DNA from: Candidatus Rokuibacteriota bacterium | GTDB lineage: Bacteria > Methylomirabilota > Methylomirabilia > Rokubacteriales > CSP1-6 | Assembly: GCA_016184305.1 (NCBI GenBank) | Contig: JACPCX010000093.1 | Span: 1-11,334, forward strand | Length of the DNA stretch: 11,334 bases | Reading direction: 5' to 3' | Part shown: piece after piece, positions 1 to 11,334 of the stretch | Numbering within the stretch: the first letter of the stretch is position 1 | Layout of the letters: every line of letters begins with the position of its first letter | Notes under the pieces: generated by a model | What the model was told of the DNA's origin: nothing | The model's database searches: none | Seen by the model: the letters and a program-made list of their open reading frames with translations, nothing else | Position numbers and translations under genes: made by a program

Positions 1-132
1 GCCTATCGCAGGGGCACCAACGTTGTCCTCCTCGATCCTGATGTGGCAGAGGTGTTCAAGGATTCCACGGCGGTGAACACAGCCCTGCGTCTGCTATTAG
101 CCCTCGCTCGAGAACAGGCCGCCAAGCAGTGA
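1..132 (+). CDS. 3' end of a putative antitoxin of the type found downstream of BrnT/DUF497 toxins (partial)
   Basis: Frame 1 reads AYRRGTNVVLLDPDVAEVFKDSTAVNTALRLLLALAREQAAKQ*. This resembles the 'V.LDPDVA..F.DS.AVN.ALR' C-terminus of BrnT-associated antitoxins. The stop at 130-132 directly precedes attC1. Not in the ORF track. Confidence 0.7.
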   Translation, partial: AYRRGTNVVLLDPDVAEVFKDSTAVNTALRLLLALAREQAAKQ

Positions 133-135
133 CGC

Positions 136-205
136 GTCGAACTTCGCGCTTCAGCGGTCCGGAGTTCGCGTTGCTCACCCCGGCCGGTGACCGCCGGCGT
201 TAAGC
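136..205 (+). mobile_element. attC site 1 (70 bp)
   Basis: R'' GTCGAAC 136-142; R' GTTAAGC 199-205. Arms TCAGCGGTCCGG / CCGGCCGGTGA pair with a bulged base and one mismatch. Confidence 0.82.
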
Positions 206-222
206 AGACAAGGGAACGGAAA

Positions 223-564
223 GTGGTGGGTGACATTCCGAAACGAGTGAAACGTCTTCTCCGCGAGTACGCATCGGCCGCTCACGAGGAGGAGTTGCGT
301 CGGGCTCTCCTGCCGCTCGCCGAGGCCTTCAAGCGCTGGGAACACAGCGACCTCGACAGCGGGGAGTTGAGCGATCTGATCCACCGATTCCATCAAGGCC
401 CGGCGCGCGAACTCTTCCTGCGTTACAACACCTCCAACCTGGTGGCGCCCGTGGCCTATGCGATCGCCGCGGGTATCGTGGATCGAACGGCGGTGCCCGG
501 TGAACTCCTGGAGCACCTTACCGGGATGATCGAGTTCTACGAGAAGGAGTTGGCGACGTCATGA
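223..564 (+). CDS. Cassette-encoded hypothetical protein (~113 aa, probably helical)
   Basis: The track ORF 187-564 starts inside attC1. A more likely start is GTG 223 (or 226) after AAGGGA at 210-215. The ORF fills the cassette between attC1 and attC2. Confidence 0.8.
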   Translation: MVGDIPKRVKRLLREYASAAHEEELRRALLPLAEAFKRWEHSDLDSGELSDLIHRFHQGPARELFLRYNTSNLVAPVAYAIAAGIVDRTAVPGELLEHLTGMIEFYEKELATS

Positions 565-571
565 GGCGGCT

Positions 572-673
572 GTCTAACGCCGCGCTCGACCTGTCCGGCC
601 GCGCCGAAATCGGGCGTGGCGGCGCTGAAGGGCTGGATGCGGCGCGGCCGGCAGGTCAGCGCGAGCGTTCGGC
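572..673 (+). mobile_element. attC site 2 (102 bp)
   Basis: R'' GTCTAAC 572-578; R' GTTCGGC 667-673. Arm GCT(C)GACCTG(T)CCGGCCGCGCCG pairs perfectly with CGGCGCGGCCGGCAGGTCAGC except for two extrahelical bases, the attC hallmark. Confidence 0.92.
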
Positions 674-726
674 CTCACCAAGGAGGAGGGCGTGCCGAAA
701 GAAGTAAGCCCTGATGTGCTGACGTG

Positions 727-915
727 ATGAAAGTTAGCGAGGTGCTGCGGATGCCGCACGACGACGATTGGCGGCTCGTCGCGATGAGGGGCAGCCACCG
801 CCAGTTCAAGCACGGCTCCAAACCAGGGCGCGTCACCGTCCCCGGGAAACCGAGCGACGAGCTCGCCCCAGGCACCCTGAACAGTATCCTCAAACAGGCT
901 GGACTCAAGAAGTGA
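727..915 (+). CDS. hicA: HicA family toxin (mRNA interferase), type II TA
   Basis: 62 aa with the RGSHRQFKH..KPGRVTVPG motif and C-terminal GTLNSILKQAGL, directly upstream of hicB. Confidence 0.93.
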   Translation: MKVSEVLRMPHDDDWRLVAMRGSHRQFKHGSKPGRVTVPGKPSDELAPGTLNSILKQAGLKK

Positions 916-922
916 GGTAGCT

Positions 923-1135
923 ATGCGGTACGCGATCGTGATCGAGAAGGCCGAGAGCAACTACTCGGCCTATGTCCCAGATCTTCCTGGCTGCGTCGCC
1001 ACCGGCGCTTCTCTCGAAGAGGTGGAGGCCGAGATCCGCGAGGCCATCGAGTTCCATCTCGAAGGCATGCGCGAAGACGGTGTGCCCATTCCGACTCCTC
1101 AGAGCAAGGTTGACTACGTCGAAGTGTCGGCATGA
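923..1135 (+). CDS. hicB: HicB family antitoxin, short form without a C-terminal DNA-binding domain
   Basis: MRYAIVIEKAESNYSAYVPDLPGCVATGASLEEVEAEIREAIEFHLEGM is a typical HicB N-terminal domain. SD GAGG lies just upstream. Confidence 0.95.
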   Translation: MRYAIVIEKAESNYSAYVPDLPGCVATGASLEEVEAEIREAIEFHLEGMREDGVPIPTPQSKVDYVEVSA

Positions 1136-1210
1136 CAAGCCGTTTCACCTGACGCGGGCCCCGCTCCCTGCGGTCGCTCGGTCCGCCGCAGGTGAACGGC
1201 AACGTTAGGC
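1130..1210 (+). mobile_element. attC site 3 (81 bp) with R'' triplet altered (GAC instead of AAC)
   Basis: R'' GCATGAC 1130-1136 contains the hicB stop; R' GTTAGGC 1204-1210. Arms GCCGTT(T)CACCTG(A)CG / CGCAGGTGAACGGC have two bulges. Confidence 0.88.
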
Positions 1211-1256
1211 CAACGAGCATGGACAACGGCTGGCATACGGAGTCCGCCGCGAGGCG

Positions 1257-1265
1257 TGGTAGGCT
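1257..1265 (+). promoter_or_regulatory. Putative extended -10 promoter of the brnT/antitoxin cassette (leaderless transcript)
   Basis: TG-G-TAGGCT ends 6 nt before ATG 1272, which has no SD. TA cassettes typically carry their own promoter. Confidence 0.45.
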
Positions 1266-1271
1266 CGAGCA

Positions 1272-1577
1272 ATGCGATTTCGGCGCCTGCAGGCGGAATA
1301 GGACGAAGACAACGTCGAGCACATCAGCCGCGACGGCGTCCAGCCCGAGGAAGTGGAAGAAATCGTCTATGAGGACTGCCAACCCTCTCGGATCGTTCGC
1401 GTCCGACGGCGAGACATTCGCGAATCCCGCTGGCTGGTGTTCGGACAAACGTGTGTCGGCCGCTATCTCCTCGCGGTGGTTGCCCCGTATCCGCAACGTG
1501 GCGTGTGGCGGGCCGTGACGGCTCGCGAGATGACTGGTCAGACCAAGCGGAGATAGCAGCAGTGGCGCAAAAGCTGA
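1272..1577 (+). pseudogene. brnT: BrnT family toxin pseudogene with two in-frame TAG stops
   Basis: Reads MRFRRLQAE*DEDNVEHISRDGVQPEEVEEI...RWLVFGQTCVGRYLLAVV...RAVTAREMTGQTKRR*QQWRKS*. TAG 1299-1301 replaces the W of the EWD motif; TAG 1554-1556 sits where the Y of 'RRY' is expected. Confidence 0.85.
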
Positions 1578-1858
1578 GCGCCTCGGATCGGCGCGCACTG
1601 CGCGCGGAGGCCGCGGACTGGGACCGCCTCAGTGATGAAGAGCTCACTCGTCTCTTCGAGAACGATCCGCCCCTCGGTACACGAGTCCGGCGCCCGCTAC
1701 CGAAGGTTGTACCGATTGCTCTGGACGAAGCCAACTTGAATCGCCTCAAGCGCGTCGCACGCCGAAAGCAGGTTCATGTACATCAGCTCGTCGCGATGTG
1801 GATAGCCGAGCGCCTTGCCCAGGAACAGGTCGAACGCCGTCCGCGCCGAATGGCCTAA
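1562..1858 (+). CDS. CopG/ribbon-helix-helix-like antitoxin, partner of the BrnT pseudogene
   Basis: GTG 1562 follows a GGAG SD and overlaps the original toxin 3' end. The C-terminal VPIALDEANLNRLKRVARRKQVHVHQLVAMWIAERL has an RHH pattern. The TAA stop lies inside R'' of attC4. Confidence 0.78.
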   Translation: MAQKLSASDRRALRAEAADWDRLSDEELTRLFENDPPLGTRVRRPLPKVVPIALDEANLNRLKRVARRKQVHVHQLVAMWIAERLAQEQVERRPRRMA

Positions 1859-1912
1859 CTTCCGGCTGGAGCGGCCGGGCGGGACGCCGGCCGAGCGGCC
1901 GGCGCATTCGGC
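1853..1912 (+). mobile_element. attC site 4 (60 bp), degenerate; R' reads ATT instead of GTT
   Basis: R'' GCCTAAC 1853-1859. The right arm CCGGCCG-AGC-GGCCGG only partly complements the left. ATTCGGC at 1906-1912 is assigned as R' because TTCGGCGG is the exact complement of CCGCCGAA at the next cassette's R'' (2437-2444). Confidence 0.7.
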
Positions 1913-1981
1913 GGACAGAGAGCGCCTTCGAGCCCCGGACCTGGCGATCCGTGAGGGACGAGGCCAAGGAGGAATCACTAC

Positions 1982-2416
1982 GTGAGGAACGGAGAACAGG
2001 GCTGGGAGGCCGACTTCCCGATGCGCGAGGAGGTCGAGGACTACGCGGGTCGGACGCGATCCTTCGTGATCAACTGTCATGAGGGCGGCCTGGGCTTCAC
2101 GGTGCGCGCCCAGGAGGACGGTCGTCCGGGCGCTGGCTACGAGTTTGCCGCCTACAGCGAGACCAGCCCCTACAGCGCCCTCGGCCGACTGAGGCAGAAG
2201 ATGTACCGGGGTGTGGCAACGCGGCACATCAGCGGCTCAACCGGCGGGTATCACATGCTCCACGACAAGCTGAGCGGCCGAATCACATCGGACGGCAAAG
2301 GCGGCGTAGTACTGGTCGTCGACGGGATCCCGTTTGGGATCGAAAACCTTGCGTCGATGCTGCTGACGCATGAAGGCTGGGGATTTGAACTGCAGATCGT
2401 GGACGCACTCGAGTGA
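1982..2416 (+). CDS. Cassette-encoded hypothetical protein (144 aa)
   Basis: Strong SD AAGGAGG before GTG 1982. Fills the cassette between attC4 and attC5. No family confidently recognised. Confidence 0.85.
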   Translation: MRNGEQGWEADFPMREEVEDYAGRTRSFVINCHEGGLGFTVRAQEDGRPGAGYEFAAYSETSPYSALGRLRQKMYRGVATRHISGSTGGYHMLHDKLSGRITSDGKGGVVLVVDGIPFGIENLASMLLTHEGWGFELQIVDALE

Positions 2417-2438
2417 TGCGCGAGCACCAGCGGAGGCC

Positions 2439-2510
2439 GCCGAACCTCGCGTTTGAGCGGGCCGCTGGCTCGCATTCGTTCGCCGCGGCCGCTCATCGTG
2501 CGCGTTCGGC
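2439..2510 (+). mobile_element. attC site 5 (72 bp)
   Basis: R'' GCCGAAC 2439-2445 and R' GTTCGGC 2504-2510 are exact complements. Arms TGAGCGG(G)CCGC / GCGGCCGCTCA. Confidence 0.9.
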
Positions 2511-2542
2511 GATCTAGGCTGTACCAATCAAGAAGGCTCAAT

Positions 2543-2986
2543 ATGAGCAACTTCCTCTTCTGGCAGAAATGGCTCTTCGGTATTGGTTCGCTTCTCACCG
2601 TCTTCGGCTTGGCGTTGACCTGTTTCAATCAGACGCCGGTCTTTGATGCTCTGTTCAACAATCAGATCACTCCAGTCTTTTGGCCAGCCCACGAGATCAC
2701 CCCTCAGATAATCAGGTTTCAGCAATGGATCTGCGGCGTCCTCGGCGCCACCATCGCCGGTTGGGGTATCTTCACAGTCTTCCTCGCCCACTATCCATTT
2801 CGAAACAAGGAACGCTGGGCTCGAAATGCAATTGCTCTGGGTATAACGGTTTGGTTTGTTACGGACACCTCCCTTTCGGTGTACTTCCTGGCCATGTTCA
2901 ACGCCGCCTTCAAGACGGTGGTGTTTGTGGCAGTCTTACTGCCGTTGCTGTTCACAAGGCACGAGTTCAATCAGGGCCGCGCCTAA
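2543..2986 (+). CDS. Cassette-encoded membrane protein (147 aa, about 4 TM helices)
   Basis: ATG 2543 follows AGAAGG; the longer track ORF starts inside attC5. Four hydrophobic stretches. TAA stop lies in R'' of attC6. Visibly lower GC than the flanking core genes. Confidence 0.85.
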   Translation: MSNFLFWQKWLFGIGSLLTVFGLALTCFNQTPVFDALFNNQITPVFWPAHEITPQIIRFQQWICGVLGATIAGWGIFTVFLAHYPFRNKERWARNAIALGITVWFVTDTSLSVYFLAMFNAAFKTVVFVAVLLPLLFTRHEFNQGRA

Positions 2987-3110
2987 CCCTTCGCTCCAGC
3001 GGACAGCGGCTCGCGCCGCCGGGGCAACCAGCCGGCTTGACTCGCACAGGTTTGGGTTCACAATCTTGTAGCACTCGCGCCGCCGCTGCCGCTGAGATCA
3101 ACCGTTATCC
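2981..3110 (+). mobile_element. attC site 6 (130 bp), last site of the array
   Basis: R'' GCCTAAC 2981-2987; R' GTTATCC 3104-3110. Arms CTC(C)AGCGG(A)CAGCGGC / GCCGCTGCCGCTGAG give the canonical extrahelical G and T on the bottom strand. Confidence 0.92.
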
Positions 3111-3274
3111 GTACAAGACGTAGTGGGGACGACGACGGCTGGCCGGGAGACTTTCGCAGTTGCGCATTCCGAACGCGCATCGCGCCATCATTGAGTCGGT
3201 GAAGCTGGGGTGATAGTCAACATGACGACGATTGGCGGCGATCAAGCGCCACCGCCCCCCCCCGCAGCGGACGC

Positions 3275-3358
3275 TCATGGCAGCAGCCCTCGCATGTCCA
3301 GGAACTCCCCTGGCGTCACGAGCCGGACCCCGGACCGCTCCGCCCCGGCGGAGTCCCG
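3275..3358 (-). pseudogene. C-terminal remnant of a PIN-domain (VapC-like) toxin
   Basis: Minus frame RDSAGAERSGVRLVTPGEFLDMRGLLP* resembles the 'RDF.GAERFG.R..TP.EFL' end of PIN-family toxins. No N-terminal part is recognisable. Confidence 0.55.
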
Positions 3359-3564
3359 CCCGGGAGGTCGCGATCGAGCACAGCAGCGCGCGGTAAACTA
3401 AGTGCTGGAACGGGTCGCGGCTCCGGCGAGCCAAGGAGGCCCGCAGATGGCTGCGCCGCGCGGGCTTCGGGAGCTGGCAGAGGAGGGAAGGGCATGAGCG
3501 ATACGCCGATTCCGGGGTTCTCGTACTTGTGGAGGAGTGAAGAGCTGTCGCCGCGGTCCGGCGC

Positions 3565-4488
3565 TCAGGCCGAGAGACGCGGGCGGATGTCGCGGGCGAA
3601 GGCCTCGTAGATCCCGACCATGTCTTCCAGGTCCCGGAGGCGCGTCTCGAACAGCACCGTGTGCACCCCGAGATCCCGGTAGCGGCTGAGGTCGGAGACG
3701 ATCTGCTCGGGCGAGCCCTGCAGGGGCTTGCGATCAGGACCGGCCGGGGCCGAGCGGATCGAGAGCCCCGCGCGCACGCTCAGGGTCAGGTCCTCGAAGC
3801 GCCGGCCCTGTCTCGAGCACTCCTCGCGCAGTAGCGCGAGGCCCTTCTCGAGCGCCTCCACGGACGGGAACGCCGCATGCCACCCGTCGCCAAGGGCGAC
3901 CACGCGCTTGAAGGCGCTCGGCGTGTGTCCGCCGATCCACACGGGGATCGTCCGGCGCAAGGGCAAGGGTGCGATGCTGACCTCGTCGAAGGAGAAGAAG
4001 CGGCCGTGGTGGCTGGCCCGCTCGGTCGCCCAGCACGCGCGCATGATCCGGATGGCCTCGTCCGACCACGCGCCCCTGCCGTCGAACGGCGCGCCCAGGA
4101 GCTCGATCTCTTCCCGCATCCACCCCACCCCCGCGCCGAGGATCACGCGCCCTCCGGAGAGGTGGTCGAGGGTCGCCAGCATCTTGGCCGCCAGCACGGG
4201 GTGACGGTGGGGCAGCACGAGGATCGTCGTCCCCAGCCGGACGCGCTCGGTCACGCCGGCGACGAGGGCCAGCGTGGTGAGGGGCTCGAGGAAATTGGCG
4301 TCGGCCGGCAGGGGGAACTGCCCGGTCTCGCTGTACGGGTAGCGGGAGCGGATCGCGTGCGGGAGCGCCACGTGGTCGCTGGCCCAGAGGGAGTCATAGC
4401 CGAGCGCCTCCATGCGCCGCGCGAAGGCGAGCACGCTGTCGCGAGTGGCGATGGGGCCGAAGACGGGGAGGTGGCAGCCGAAATCCAT
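3565..4488 (-). CDS. LLM class (luciferase-like) oxidoreductase, probably F420-dependent
   Basis: Start MDFGCHLP. Motifs GYDSLWASDHV, EPLTTLALVAGVTERVRLGTTILVLPHRHPVLAAKMLATLDHLSGGRVILGAGVGW and PVWIGG. Confidence 0.92.
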   Translation of the reverse strand: MDFGCHLPVFGPIATRDSVLAFARRMEALGYDSLWASDHVALPHAIRSRYPYSETGQFPLPADANFLEPLTTLALVAGVTERVRLGTTILVLPHRHPVLAAKMLATLDHLSGGRVILGAGVGWMREEIELLGAPFDGRGAWSDEAIRIMRACWATERASHHGRFFSFDEVSIAPLPLRRTIPVWIGGHTPSAFKRVVALGDGWHAAFPSVEALEKGLALLREECSRQGRRFEDLTLSVRAGLSIRSAPAGPDRKPLQGSPEQIVSDLSRYRDLGVHTVLFETRLRDLEDMVGIYEAFARDIRPRLSA

Positions 4489-4492
4489 GGCG

Positions 4493-6085
4493 CTACTCGC
4501 GGTGGCCGCCGGAGGCGTACAGGAGCCGGCCACCGAGCTCGCTGCCGGCGATCATCTGCCCGAGGCGCGAGCGCTGGATCTTCCCGCTGGAGGTCTTCGG
4601 GATCGTGCTGGGTTGCACCAGCAGCACCTTGGCGGGACGGTGGCCGCGGCCGTGGTGGACGCGCTGCACGATCTCGCGGACGAGGCCTGACAGGGTCTCG
4701 TGGTCGGCGATCCCCTCCCGCACCTCGGCCACCACGTGGAGGCGCTGCGTCCCGAGCCGATCGCTCTCGATCCCCACCGCGGCAGAGTAGCGCACCCCGG
4801 GCACGTCGTCCACGATCTCCTCGATATCCACTGGGATGATGTTCTCGCCGGCGAGAAGGATGAGGTCTTTCAGGCGGCCCGTGATGAAGAGGTAGCCCTC
4901 GCCGTCCACGAAGCCGAGATCCCCGGTGCGCAGCCAGCCGTCCGGGGCGAGCACTTGCCGCGTGGCCTCGGGGTTGTTGTAGTAGCCCTGCATCACCCCC
5001 GGGCTCCGTACGCAGATCTCCCCCTCGACGTCGGCGCCCAGGACCTGGCTCTCCTGCATGATGCGGACGGAGACGCCGCGGCATGGCTGCCCCACGGACA
5101 TGAAGCGGCCGGAGCGGTCGGAACGGAGGGGGACGGCGCGCGACCAGATGGCGACGGCCAGCGTCGCCTCGGCCAGCCCATACGCCGGCGTGATCACGTT
5201 ACGCACACCGAACTTCTCCTCGAAGGAGTGGATGGTGCTGAGTCGCACCGGCTCGGCCCCGGACATCGCCTGCTTCAGGGATGACAGGTCGAGGCCGCTG
5301 GTGTCGTGGATGTTGCGCACACAGTTCCGGTATCCGAAGTCGGGAGAGACGGTGAACGTGGCCCGCACCCGGGTGATCAGCTCCAGCCAGTGGCGCGGGT
5401 TCCTGAGATCGGGCGGCAGGAGGTAGAGCGGCGAGCCCGTGGTCGGCGGCGTGAAGGCGCAGCCGATGAGCCCCATGTCGTGGTAGAGCGGCAGCCACGA
5501 CACCACGACGTCGTCGCGCGTGAGCTGGGCGGCCTCGGCCATGAACTCCACCGTGCGGCAGACGTTGGCGTGGCTGAGGACCACTCCGCGGGGATGCCCG
5601 GTGCTGCCGGAGGTGTACTGGATGAAGGCGATGTCCTCCTCGCGCGCCGTCGGCAGGACGGGGAGGGGCGCATCCGTCTCCAGATCGGAGGGCTCGAGGA
5701 TCGCGCGCACGTTTCCGGCGCCGGCGCCCGCCTCCTCCACGCCCTGCCGGAACCAGCCGATCGTGACGACGACCTTCGCCTCGGAGTCGCGGAAGATGTT
5801 GGCGGTGCCCTCCACGCCCATCGTGGGGTAGAGCGGCACGGGGATCGCGCCCAGCCTGAGCGCGCCGAAGAACGTGTAGAAGAACTCGGCGCAGGTCGGG
5901 TAGATCAGGCAGACCTTGTCCCCACGCTCCACACCGAACCGCGCGAGGCCTGCCGCGTGGCGCGCGCTTTCGCGCCAGAGCGCACCGTAGGTGATGGCCT
6001 CGTCGAAGAGGTGGAAGTACGGGGTCTCGGGATCGGCGGCGGCCCGCAGCCCGATCAGCTCGGTGAGGGTCGAGGCCTTGATCAT
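4493..6085 (-). CDS. AMP-binding adenylate-forming enzyme, fatty acyl-AMP ligase (FAAL)-like
   Basis: Motifs QYTSGSTGHPRGV, SWLPLYHDMGLIG, YGLAEATL, WLRTGDLGF, GRLKDLI and IPKTSSGKIQR. Confidence 0.92.
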   Translation of the reverse strand: MIKASTLTELIGLRAAADPETPYFHLFDEAITYGALWRESARHAAGLARFGVERGDKVCLIYPTCAEFFYTFFGALRLGAIPVPLYPTMGVEGTANIFRDSEAKVVVTIGWFRQGVEEAGAGAGNVRAILEPSDLETDAPLPVLPTAREEDIAFIQYTSGSTGHPRGVVLSHANVCRTVEFMAEAAQLTRDDVVVSWLPLYHDMGLIGCAFTPPTTGSPLYLLPPDLRNPRHWLELITRVRATFTVSPDFGYRNCVRNIHDTSGLDLSSLKQAMSGAEPVRLSTIHSFEEKFGVRNVITPAYGLAEATLAVAIWSRAVPLRSDRSGRFMSVGQPCRGVSVRIMQESQVLGADVEGEICVRSPGVMQGYYNNPEATRQVLAPDGWLRTGDLGFVDGEGYLFITGRLKDLILLAGENIIPVDIEEIVDDVPGVRYSAAVGIESDRLGTQRLHVVAEVREGIADHETLSGLVREIVQRVHHGRGHRPAKVLLVQPSTIPKTSSGKIQRSRLGQMIAGSELGGRLLYASGGHRE

Positions 6086-6153
6086 CCAGGGATCCTCGGG
6101 GAGATGCCGGTGGCGGCGGGGGCGATCATCGTCAGGGGGTCATTCTATCCCAA

Positions 6154-6855
6154 CTAGCGCTCGATCAGGATGCGGTCGAAGGTCTCCGCGTACGTGTAGC
6201 CCTTGAGCCGACCGAAGCGGGCGGCCCGGTCGCGCACGCGCGCCTCCACGGCGACCATGTCCTGGATCTGGCTGGCGTGGCAGGCCAGGGCCTTGAACTT
6301 CAGGTCGATGGTGTCGGAGATGTCCACGACCACCTCGGGGTTTTCCCACCACATGAGGTGGACCTCCTTCACCTTGTGCGGCTCGAGCCCCTGGGCGAGA
6401 AGCTCGGGGAAGGCCATGTGATCCCGCGCGAGCGGGTAGACGACGTCGAGGACGAGCCCTGCGGTGATGCGGTGGTCGCGGTGCGAGGCGAAGAGGTTCT
6501 TGGTGCGGTGCGGGTTCTGCGTGATGATCAGGTCCGGGCGGTTGCGGCGGATCGCGGCGGTCACGGCCATGCGCGACTGGTGCGTGTCCTCCAGCTCGCC
6601 GTCTGGAAAGCCGAGGAAGTCCACCGTCTCGACGCCGAGGACCCGCGCGGCCGCGCGCTGCTCCTCCGCGCGGATCTTCACGAGTCGGTCCGGGGTCATC
6701 GCGCGGTCGCCCGATCCCTTGCTGCCGTCCGTGACGATGCAGTAGGTGACCTGCTTGCCTTCCTTGGCGAGCCGGGCGACCGTGCCGCCGGCGCCGAACT
6801 CGGAGTCGTCCGGGTGGGCCGTGATCACCATCACACGCTGGATGCGCTCAGCCAT
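6154..6855 (-). CDS. PIG-L/LmbE family deacetylase
   Basis: Metal-binding motifs AHPDDSEFG and HRDH, plus K..AL.CHASQ. SD AAGGAG upstream. Confidence 0.93.
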   Translation of the reverse strand: MAERIQRVMVITAHPDDSEFGAGGTVARLAKEGKQVTYCIVTDGSKGSGDRAMTPDRLVKIRAEEQRAAARVLGVETVDFLGFPDGELEDTHQSRMAVTAAIRRNRPDLIITQNPHRTKNLFASHRDHRITAGLVLDVVYPLARDHMAFPELLAQGLEPHKVKEVHLMWWENPEVVVDISDTIDLKFKALACHASQIQDMVAVEARVRDRAARFGRLKGYTYAETFDRILIER

Positions 6856-6875
6856 GAGTTCTCCTTTAGCTCAGC

Positions 6876-6881
6876 TATAAT
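6876..6881 (+). promoter_or_regulatory. Putative -10 box in the divergent intergenic region
   Basis: Perfect TATAAT in a GC-rich genome, inside the 56-bp gap between divergent genes. An overlapping TTGCTT-N16-CATTAT is present on the minus strand. Confidence 0.55.
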
Positions 6882-6911
6882 GCGGGCCGTGGCGAAGAAA
6901 GCAAGCGCGGC

Positions 6912-7226
6912 ATGAGCATATCACCCCATGCGCGCCGCGAGCCGTCCTCGACGCCTTCGACCTCGATCACGCACCTCCGCGCCGCCGGCGTCATCCTCGT
7001 CCTCCTGCTCGCGGCGTTCCCGCTGCTCGCGATGCTGCCGAATGACGTGGCCGGCATCCGGGTCGCGGGGCTGTCCATTCTCTGGTGGTACGGGGGCGTG
7101 CTGGCGCCGCTGGCCGCAACGGCGGTGGCGACGCTGGCCGGCGGGCGTGGCGCCGCGGAGACCCCGTTCTCGCCCGATGCGCCGGCGGCGGGAGCGTCGA
7201 GCGCTCGGCCGCCGGATCTCTCCTGA
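6912..7226 (+). CDS. Small two-TM membrane protein, DUF485/DUF4212-like symporter companion
   Basis: Two hydrophobic segments around 'IRVAGLSILWWYG'. Its stop overlaps the start of the symporter-like gene (TGATG), the layout seen in yjcH-actP type pairs. Confidence 0.6.
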   Translation: MSISPHARREPSSTPSTSITHLRAAGVILVLLLAAFPLLAMLPNDVAGIRVAGLSILWWYGGVLAPLAATAVATLAGGRGAAETPFSPDAPAAGASSARPPDLS

Positions 7227-8710
7227 TGGGCGCGCCGGGCCTGCTGGCCGTCTGGCTCACGCCCGCGGTGTGGCTCACGCTCCCGGCGCTGATCCTCGCC
7301 GGCGGTCCCGATGGCCTCTGGGTCGGGTTCGCGGCCGTGGTGGCGCCACTCGTGGCCGTGCGTGCACGAGTGAGGCAGGCGCGGTCCGGCGACGGCGGAC
7401 CCGTCCCCCTGTTCCACGTGGCCGTGCTCTTCCTCGCGGTGGCAGGTCTCATCTGGGCGAACCTCGTCGTGGTGGGCGACCTCGTGGGTCGGCTGGGCGC
7501 CCCGCGCTGGCATGGGATTGCCATCGCGGCGGCCGGGGGGCTCGTGCTCACCGCGTGGCGAGGGGCCGAGCGGGTCGCCGTCCCCCTCCTTGTCGTGACC
7601 CTCGGCGCAGCCGTCGTGCCGCTCCTGCTGGTTGCGCTCGCCTCCGGGATCAGCCCCGTGGGCGCCTGGGGCGCCGTCGCGAGCCGCACGGGTTTTCACT
7701 TCGCGCGGCAGAGCCACTGGGTCACCGAGGGCCGGGACCTGCGTCTTGCCCATGGACATGCCGGCATCGTCTTCGACGAGGAGCATCGCATCACCGCGTC
7801 AGGGGAGGGCAACCTCCGGCTGTACAGCAAGGATGGCGGCAGCGGTGCGGAGCGCGAGTGGAAGCTCTCGCCGGGTCAGTCGATCCTCGCGCGGCCTGGC
7901 GACCGCCTGGAGCCGGCGCCGGGGATGCGCGTGCGCTTCGAGGCGGACAAGCGCGTGCCCGGCGCGCCGCCGTCGGGCATCGCCTGGGCCGCCGGGCGCC
8001 GCCTCCGGGCGGTTGATGCGCTCGGGCTCGCCGTGACGCTGATGGGCGGAGCCATCGCGCTCCTGGCCCCCGCTCTCCCCTCACGGCCATCGCGGCTCAC
8101 CGTCGGGCTGCTCGGCACCGGGCTCGTGCTCGCGCTCTTCTGGGCGCAGGGGTGGGCCATCTACGCGGCGCTGGGAGCCCCCGATGTCTTTCTCGGCGGG
8201 GTGACGGCCGAGGGGCTCTTGGACGTGCCGCGGCTTGTGCTGGGGGAGAGCGTGGGGGCGCTCAGGCTCCAGGGACTCCTGCTCGTCGGCCCGTTCGCGA
8301 GCTTCCTCGCCTCCACCATCGCGCTCAGGGGCCGGGTCGCCCGCGTGGACGCCCCGGGCGGGGGGGAGATCGGGCGCGACCTCGGGCTGTGGGCGATGGC
8401 CTTCGGGGGCGCCGGCGTCGCCAGCCTCTGGCCCCTGGACCCCTGGGCGCTCGTCCTGCTCGTCCTCGGGGCCGCAGCCTCGGCGCTGGCGCCCGCGGTC
8501 CTCCTGCCGCGCCACGGCAACCAGCCGCGCGCCGCGACGCTGGCAGGGTGTGTCGGGCTCACCGTGTTCGCCCTGCTCGCTGCGGCAGGACCGGTCCGGG
8601 GTCGCGCTCTCGACGGCCTGCTGGCCGTGGCGGCCGGCTTCCCCGCCGTCGCGGCGCTGCCGGCGGCGCTCGGCGTGCTCTGGCTCGCGGGCCGTCGAGC
8701 GCCGGAGTAG
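7226..8710 (+). CDS. Polytopic membrane protein, divergent sodium:solute symporter (ActP-like) candidate
   Basis: 494 aa from ATG 7226, with roughly 12-13 hydrophobic segments and a soluble insert of about 100 aa. The family call rests on topology and the small companion gene. Confidence 0.6.
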
Positions 8711-8722
8711 AATGAGGCCTCG

Positions 8723-11334
<2,612 letters not shown>

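Follow-up and report, generated by a model that had tools for sequence, protein, structure and literature searches.

The locus described here raises the questions of where an array of integron gene cassettes ends, how it came to end there and which integrase assembled it. The stretch analysed (the window) is the 11,334 nt contig JACPCX010000093.1, the entire contig C136 of a Candidatus Rokuibacteriota genome (GCA_016184305.1, here G000; 3.2 Mb, 70 % GC, 89 % complete), with no assembled DNA left of position 1. An initial annotation, made from the letters alone, had read positions 1–3110 as the distal end of a chromosomal cassette array with six attC sites, either integrase-linked or an integrase-less attC cluster (CALIN), in a GC-rich environmental bacterium. 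Model matches to the sites and the mobility of the cassettes uphold the reading as a cassette array. We further conclude that seven cassettes in the window, with six attC sites, very probably form the last part of an array that is broken in its seventh cassette and was likely built by the reverse-oriented integrase of the Rokubacteria themselves. In established integron biology, the integrase IntI binds attC in its folded bottom-strand form, cuts between G and TT and inserts cassettes at attI; the window array would have been built in this way. GC content is 56–65 % in the cassette zone versus 71 % in the remainder of the window.

Six co-oriented attC-like sites of 60–130 bp each were identified on the plus strand, with crossovers at positions 199, 667, 1204, 1906, 2504 and 3104. 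We gathered 70 distinct attC-like sites from loci outside the window and aligned 51 of them (57–75 bp) to build a covariance model, R1, which is our own and not that of IntegronFinder. Bottom-strand R1 scores for sites 1 to 6 were 51.3, 48.0, 37.3, 18.5, 64.7 and 40.3 bits; top-strand scores of the same sites were 9–24 bits, and the rest of the window, beyond position 3110, gave no match above 11.3 bits. Trained on 69 sites from outside the window, a two-arm weight matrix recovered five of the six (scores 44.7–51.2). In its controls, the top score was 19.3 in 100 Markov-simulated 3.2 kb sequences, and the reversed genome gave no matches at 24 or above. Within the site family 92 % of cells were paired, with a covariation score of 0.433 versus 0.118 when shuffled, a score biased high because the family sites had been selected for pairing. 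Single-strand folding alone is weak at sites 1, 4 and 6 (z −1.4, −0.7 and −1.4). R''/R' boxes with AAC and GTT, L''/L' boxes, extrahelical bases and bottom-strand polarity are present in five of the six sites, site 4 being weak. Between successive sites lies one gene or one toxin–antitoxin pair, with the gene ending at R''. A home-made folding probability was similar on both strands, failed on one intact site and was not used as evidence, and Rfam offered no fitting family.

Five of the six hairpins initially described therefore stand, at 37–65 bits, but site 4 (18.5 bits) is not an intact one. attC1 (136–205), possibly a chimera of two attC bodies, shows two mismatches in its L boxes, and its minimum-energy fold is non-canonical; attC2 (572–673) folds canonically (z −5.9). 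attC3 spans 1130–1210, attC5 2439–2510 and attC6 2981–3110, the last with a 78 % relative in genome G005. Contigs from four sequencing runs (X1 and X4 among them), all of one study and independently assembled, served as a read check. The R'' of attC3 reads GAC in the window but AAC in the related genome G003 and in all four runs, where G1134 is A. The heterogeneity of the sites had been taken to indicate several donors, a suggestion that loses its footing here: one model, drawn from related loci and from metagenome arrays that have a cassette in common, fits all five intact sites, and related genomes contain close counterparts of sites 3, 5 and 6.

The initial annotation regarded the TTATCC that follows the last crossover as marking the array terminus. 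The DNA there (3104–3206, plus strand) is the first 103 bp of a seventh cassette, comprising a leader and 16 codons from TTG 3160, and breaks off after position 3206. The whole cassette, of ~690 bp, opens with GTTATCC, and its intact copies encode DUF6883 and DUF4926 (PF21814, PF16277). Window 3104–3206 matched DNA directly behind attI of genome G016, and a pattern scan located the cassette start at 43 metagenome loci, with each of which the window shares 67–83 of 103 bases. An exactly complementary R'' lies 576–672 bp downstream at 35 of these; six of the remaining loci are cut by contig ends and two show the G016-type truncation. The loci have 29 distinct upstream contexts (40-mers), several loci being near-duplicates. 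That TTATCC might be host DNA, or belong to attI as its right half, was ruled out, as this cassette start stands behind many attC and three attI-like sites. Since this mobile cassette, with its complementary R'', normally begins in this way, the right end of the array is a break, and the case cautions against taking odd sequence past a last crossover for the original end of an array. The remainder of cassette 7 was not found elsewhere in the G000 assembly.

Both this junction and the damaged attC4 might be artefacts of metagenome-bin assembly, given that many similar cassettes exist in these communities and that the window differs from the runs around hicB. However, independently assembled contigs of all four runs cross 3206/3207 and attC4 without differences, and we regard an artefact as very improbable. 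Microhomology at 3206/3207 amounts to at most 1 base. On the far side of the break, positions 3207–3400 (minus strand) hold non-cassette DNA, namely the 3' end of a toxin gene and the start of its partner, with 71 % identity to an intact-looking pair in G001. We presume the toxin to be PIN-type from its translation, the fragment having no Pfam match. The first 12 codons of a DUF433 antitoxin gene follow at 3494–3529 (plus strand); this gene is whole in G003, as part of a DUF433/DUF5615 pair, and segment 3207–3529 as a whole is 97 % identical in that genome. A structured RNA in 3207–3529 was ruled out, the segment being toxin–antitoxin relic DNA. The array is thus not directly beside housekeeping genes, as had been described, but separated from them by ~440 bp (3104–3545) of broken cassette and toxin–antitoxin relics.

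The remainder of the window (3565–11334, 71 % GC) is a conserved host block, assigned from Pfam and present in relatives that have no array there. Its minus strand encodes a luciferase-like oxidoreductase, an AMP-binding ligase and a PIG-L deacetylase, its plus strand membrane proteins and uvrA. No attC match was found at the orthologous locus in any of 13 relatives, several of which have less than 4 kb of flank. A common left neighbour block, presumably a methyltransferase, a sigma factor and a transaldolase judging from the translations, is kept at nine of the 13 orthologous loci (G003 and eight of the 12 others), and was not found in the G000 assembly. The absence of this neighbour block from the assembly, together with the partial cassette 7, identifies the right end as a derived break. 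A later illegitimate rearrangement would have deleted the missing part of cassette 7 and put other DNA in the place of the housekeeping block's ancestral neighbours.

These observations also bear on a different origin, in which the array grew in place as a CALIN by insertion at attG, a secondary site in the chromosome, followed by attC-to-attC recombination by IntI in trans, TTATCC being host DNA. Insertion at attG is established in E. coli, according to the accessible text of 10.1101/2022.09.11.507474, and scattered clusters are many in the family, with 3–17 per near-complete genome and, in one such genome (G163), five clusters and no intI. But the DNA past the last crossover is cassette and not host, which refutes in-place growth for the right end, and the ancestral left neighbours were not found beside the host block. 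We judge this origin improbable for the array as a whole, although attG may still have been involved at the unseen left end. A break within a cassette is not evidently how arrays in general end: a comparison of 82 post-terminal stretches with 215 internal cassettes gave few matches, leaving such generality unsupported. The array on G000:C224 (~17,700, minus strand) also seems to end within a toxin-like cassette start, with a weak match only. At the window's locus, the junction in G001 is marked by a REP-like inverted repeat family (L009 ~6,010–6,060; L090:50–215) with dozens of copies in G000.

The cassettes themselves, whose genes all lie on the plus strand, are mobile. Cassettes 1, 2, 3, 5 and 7 recur with other neighbours, for 2, 3, 5 and 7 the homology begins at the crossover, and the genes lack fixed synteny in relatives. 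Cassette 1 is cut by the contig start, leaving the 3' end of its second gene, a putative BrnA-type antitoxin (1–132). Window 1–142 shares 95 % identity with the cassette next to attI in G024, the first gene of which encodes BrnT (PF04365, E 3e-27); cassette 1 would therefore be a BrnT toxin with a BrnA-type antitoxin, the antitoxin label having no Pfam match. One X4 contig tracks window 1–202 and then diverges, just beyond the crossover at 199. The cassette 2 gene (223–564) encodes ~113 amino acids of a family without a Pfam or PADLOC match, for which the Atlas holds only unnamed clusters; a 97 % copy, with homology beginning at the crossover, is present in G101, a member of another genus. That distal cassettes are the oldest, as the initial annotation supposed, is accordingly unproven here, the neighbourhood being derived and cassette 2 having this copy. 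Cassette 3 carries hicA (724–915; PF07927, E 2e-19) and hicB (923–1135; PF15919, E 3e-14), and has an 89 % copy between different neighbours in G003; this HicAB pair would help keep the array in place.

Cassette 4 comprises a BrnT-like toxin pseudogene (1272–1556; PF04365, E 3e-6) with two premature in-frame stops and a putative antitoxin-like partner (1562–1858), an open reading frame with no Pfam match. In its G026 homologue the toxin frame is open, with the partner homologue right after it. The cassette 5 gene (1982–2416) has DUF7686 and DUF7713 by Pfam, and in the G002-type integron L086 an 86 % copy of the cassette occupies the third position and has the canonical GTT start. Cassette 6 (2543–2986, 55 % GC) encodes a 147-amino-acid hydrophobic predicted membrane protein of unknown function, for which the Atlas gave no named family; its GC content is low, a search of 182 further genomes from the order yielded no DNA match to it, and it alone among the cassettes looks foreign. 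PADLOC gave no defence match for six cassette proteins. An 18/19-base direct repeat between hicA (757–775) and the relic zone (3221–3239) is probably due to chance.

Loss of mobility is visible at the fourth site. attC4 (1853–1912, plus strand; crossover 1906) has an R' of ATTCGGC, so that the crossover reads ATT (G to A), and its left arm is the top-scoring unpaired left arm of the genome, the right arm being broken. In the L' arm, the 4-base loop at 1893–1896 is inverted within a perfect 8 bp palindrome (1885–1904); it reads GAGC, where intact relatives in G001 and G177 have the reverse complement GCTC. The window site folds as a local 8 bp palindrome, the relatives as attC. An inverted loop with a perfected palindrome is a mark of replication template switching, and a template switch within a near-palindrome likely caused the inversion. 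No other inverted loop was found among 238 strong left arms, the window's own excepted, and a literature search for template switching in attC sites returned no description, just an unrelated IS26 paper. With attC4 damaged, cassettes 4 and 5 would move only jointly, as one unit, and cassette 4 would be dead and locked to cassette 5. This offers a concrete route to cassette fixation, by one mutation that destroys an attC arm.

Which integrase built the array can be approached from the rest of the genome and its relatives. G000 contains two pieces of intI, an N-terminus running off contig C170 and an internal fragment on C229 that is fused to another array. The C170 piece is 97 % identical to intI of G002, the near-identical full gene of which scores 454 bits against TIGR02249 (cut-off 265), and its locus is common to G000, G001 and G002. 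A strong IntI match was found in 23 of 61 genomes, and 16 pass the family cut-off. Integrase loci of the family and its nearest matches numbered 28, L087 and L177 being the same DNA; attC sites were present at 22, in every case downstream of intI and co-oriented and never head-to-head, and most of the other six lie near a contig end. By comparison, 71 control loci from other phyla, examined with R1, comprised 16 canonical, nine inverted and one other arrangement, with 45 giving no matches. At L124 (Chloroflexi), the attC sites lie downstream of intI yet face it, which is neither canonical nor inverted. The initial annotation had advised looking left of the window for an integrase, attI and a cassette promoter (Pc); the direction holds, but an intI in this lineage would point towards the cassettes.

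attI-like sites lie ~200–260 bp behind the integrase stop codon. The population from which the window derives contains a near-identical integrase and attI, and contigs of the four runs follow L086 through intI and depart exactly at GTT. The named integrases nearest to the IntI of a same-genus relative are labelled Candidatus Rokubacteria, Rokuibacteriota or Methylomirabilota. In a quick tree the Rokubacteria IntIs form their own clade (SH-like approximate likelihood ratio 95; one row is labelled Binatia), with the relation to the Treponema/Cyanobium clade left unresolved. attC sites occur in 100 of 108 family genomes as scattered clusters, numbering 8, 5, 17, 7 and 3 in five near-complete genomes, and up to several intI copies or fragments are found per family genome with no single fixed locus. 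Movement of the intI–attI platform as a cassette is unsupported: co-oriented upstream attC were detected by the model at two of the 22 loci, 1.8 and 5 kb off with other genes between, and one further degenerate site was seen by eye. A same start of ~25 bases, followed by apparent recombinase genes, was noted after attC/attI crossovers in several genomes (L086:7098 onwards, L170, L187 and L101), which gives the appearance of a larger element entering arrays in the manner of a cassette. At G000:C229:6493–6780, the intI fragment (model positions 65–160) is fused in frame to a cassette gene end, and the array there has similar host genes on both sides, a possible mosaic or misassembly.

As a special case of the reading given at the outset, the window may be the distal part of a complete working inverted integron, still attached to the C170 intI and attI, with cassette 1 first or early. 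The C170 intI runs off its contig towards the expected array position, and population tiles cover the whole of intI and attI at depths like those of the window. In X1, the attI contig extends 260 bases past the crossover and the window contig begins 163 bases before position 1; if the 399-base offset of this cassette in G024 is applied, the computed unitig overlap is 27 bases versus the 30 expected of adjacent unitigs. Moreover, intI adjoins four of the seven clusters of at least five attC in the five near-complete genomes, two of these genes being intact. On the other hand, cassette 1 is expected to begin GTTCG and to match the reference for two bases more, but the attI contigs diverge from it directly after GTT; two further G000 arrays (C224 and C20) are likewise open at the 5' end. 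Attachment to the C170 integrase is accordingly put forward only tentatively, and we lean slightly towards a detached CALIN served in trans.

Several points weigh against our reading as a whole or in part. The window itself has no integrase, attI or Pc, no physical link between C136 and C170 was found, and in the near-complete G163 the orthologues of the two flanks are 395 kb apart. The four runs are possibly the source of the G000 assembly. The window shows ~9 base differences from the runs in 998–1200 (nine bases and two gaps from X1), so local assembly or strain differences exist. The absent ancestral neighbours of the host block are perhaps just unbinned, the genome being 89 % complete. 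The template-switch reading of attC4 is based on two intact relatives, the G026 homologue of cassette 4 is only 67 % identical, and cassette 6 matched none of the other genomes searched.

The site collection also gave a testable lead on how cassettes change their attC sites. Among 254 distinct sites there were 19 gene-end families with at least two members, six of which carry more than one attC body; one of the six is an insertion-element end and one diverges ~9 bases before AAC. In 15 pairs from four families, identity was 0.79–1.0 in the 40 bases up to AAC and 0.44–0.51 after it, unrelated sites having a background of 0.37–0.60. Five attC bodies were found on the gene end of the window's first cassette and three on the DUF4926 cassette. 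Because these pairs were picked for differing bodies, some being motif-anchored, and AAC is followed by no attC in the G101 member, body exchange is only a lead. G000:C224:18845–18902 and the DUF6883 cassette present the reciprocal of such swaps, the same attC body (92 % identity) on two unrelated genes. Insertion elements offer an alternative route to body swaps: what we take to be an IS91-like element, with its own tyrosine recombinase, sits directly after GAAC of R'' at L086:3186–5746 and in L166, splitting the site from its body, and an 85 % copy is present on G000:C59. Introns that target attC could be another such route. Elements with transposases that are presumably IS110-family-like were also seen at GTT of R' in two other arrays (G000:C224 ~20,450–21,940 and C229 ~7,910–9,450).

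The sequence comparison suggests the idea, which we consider doubtful, that recombination between the top strands of two attC at R'' is also a routine activity of the Rokubacteria integrase, by which whole attC bodies are traded. In engineered sites, top-strand recombination shifts the crossover to R'' (PMC2727003, accessible portion), but excerpts of PMC5371416 and PMC5027507 put its frequency about three orders of magnitude below that of bottom-strand recombination, which speaks against the idea. The accessible parts of PMC1382264 and PMC12614218 add nothing on attC swaps. If true, such exchange would have left in natural arrays the traces of a reaction otherwise known from engineered sites alone, and would give genes a way to gain new host-adapted attC, bearing on the open question of cassette genesis.

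The elements of this system have precedents. As far as the available portions of these sources go, inverted-integrase integrons (PMC4889954, PMC13323075, PMC9668308), CALINs with their origin by rearrangement and attG insertion (PMC4889954; 10.1101/2025.06.18.660453; 10.1101/2022.09.11.507474) and toxin–antitoxin cassettes in sedentary integrons (PMC11023631) are already known, and degenerate attC have been proposed as a step to fixation (PMC4889954). Our literature search found no integron description for Rokubacteria or Methylomirabilota, with the limit that subscription papers and supplementary tables may list such genomes, and the taxon-specific attC models in the accessible text of PMC8352920 omit Rokubacteria. 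What the present data add is a phylum-level uncultured lineage in which the cassette system is near-universal, the integrases are uniformly inverted and the arrays are many, scattered and often broken.

The window resembles CALINs, as characterized in the accessible literature, in being a cluster of at least two attC with no integrase in view in a genome encoding IntI elsewhere, but its contig starts mid-cassette, so that the absence of intI cannot be shown. CALIN positions in Xanthomonas are fairly conserved across species, according to the available text of 10.1101/2025.06.18.660453, whereas the window's locus is empty in 13 relatives. With attG-inserted cassettes and single attC sites lacking an integrase (SALINs), as portrayed in the portion available of 10.1101/2022.09.11.507474, it shares the placement of cassettes away from the integron platform; its right end, in contrast, is a break inside a cassette and not a GTT junction with host DNA. 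The family's layout is like that of the inverted sedentary integrons of Treponema and others. In the descriptions accessible, these likewise have IntI on the attC strand and their cassettes, toxin–antitoxin ones included, follow downstream of intI; the attC are short, with two extrahelical bases. The Rokubacteria family differs from these in having no single fixed locus and 3–17 attC clusters per genome. In sum, the array is real and partly decayed, and within a lineage that has seen little study it is a largely ordinary example of a known system.

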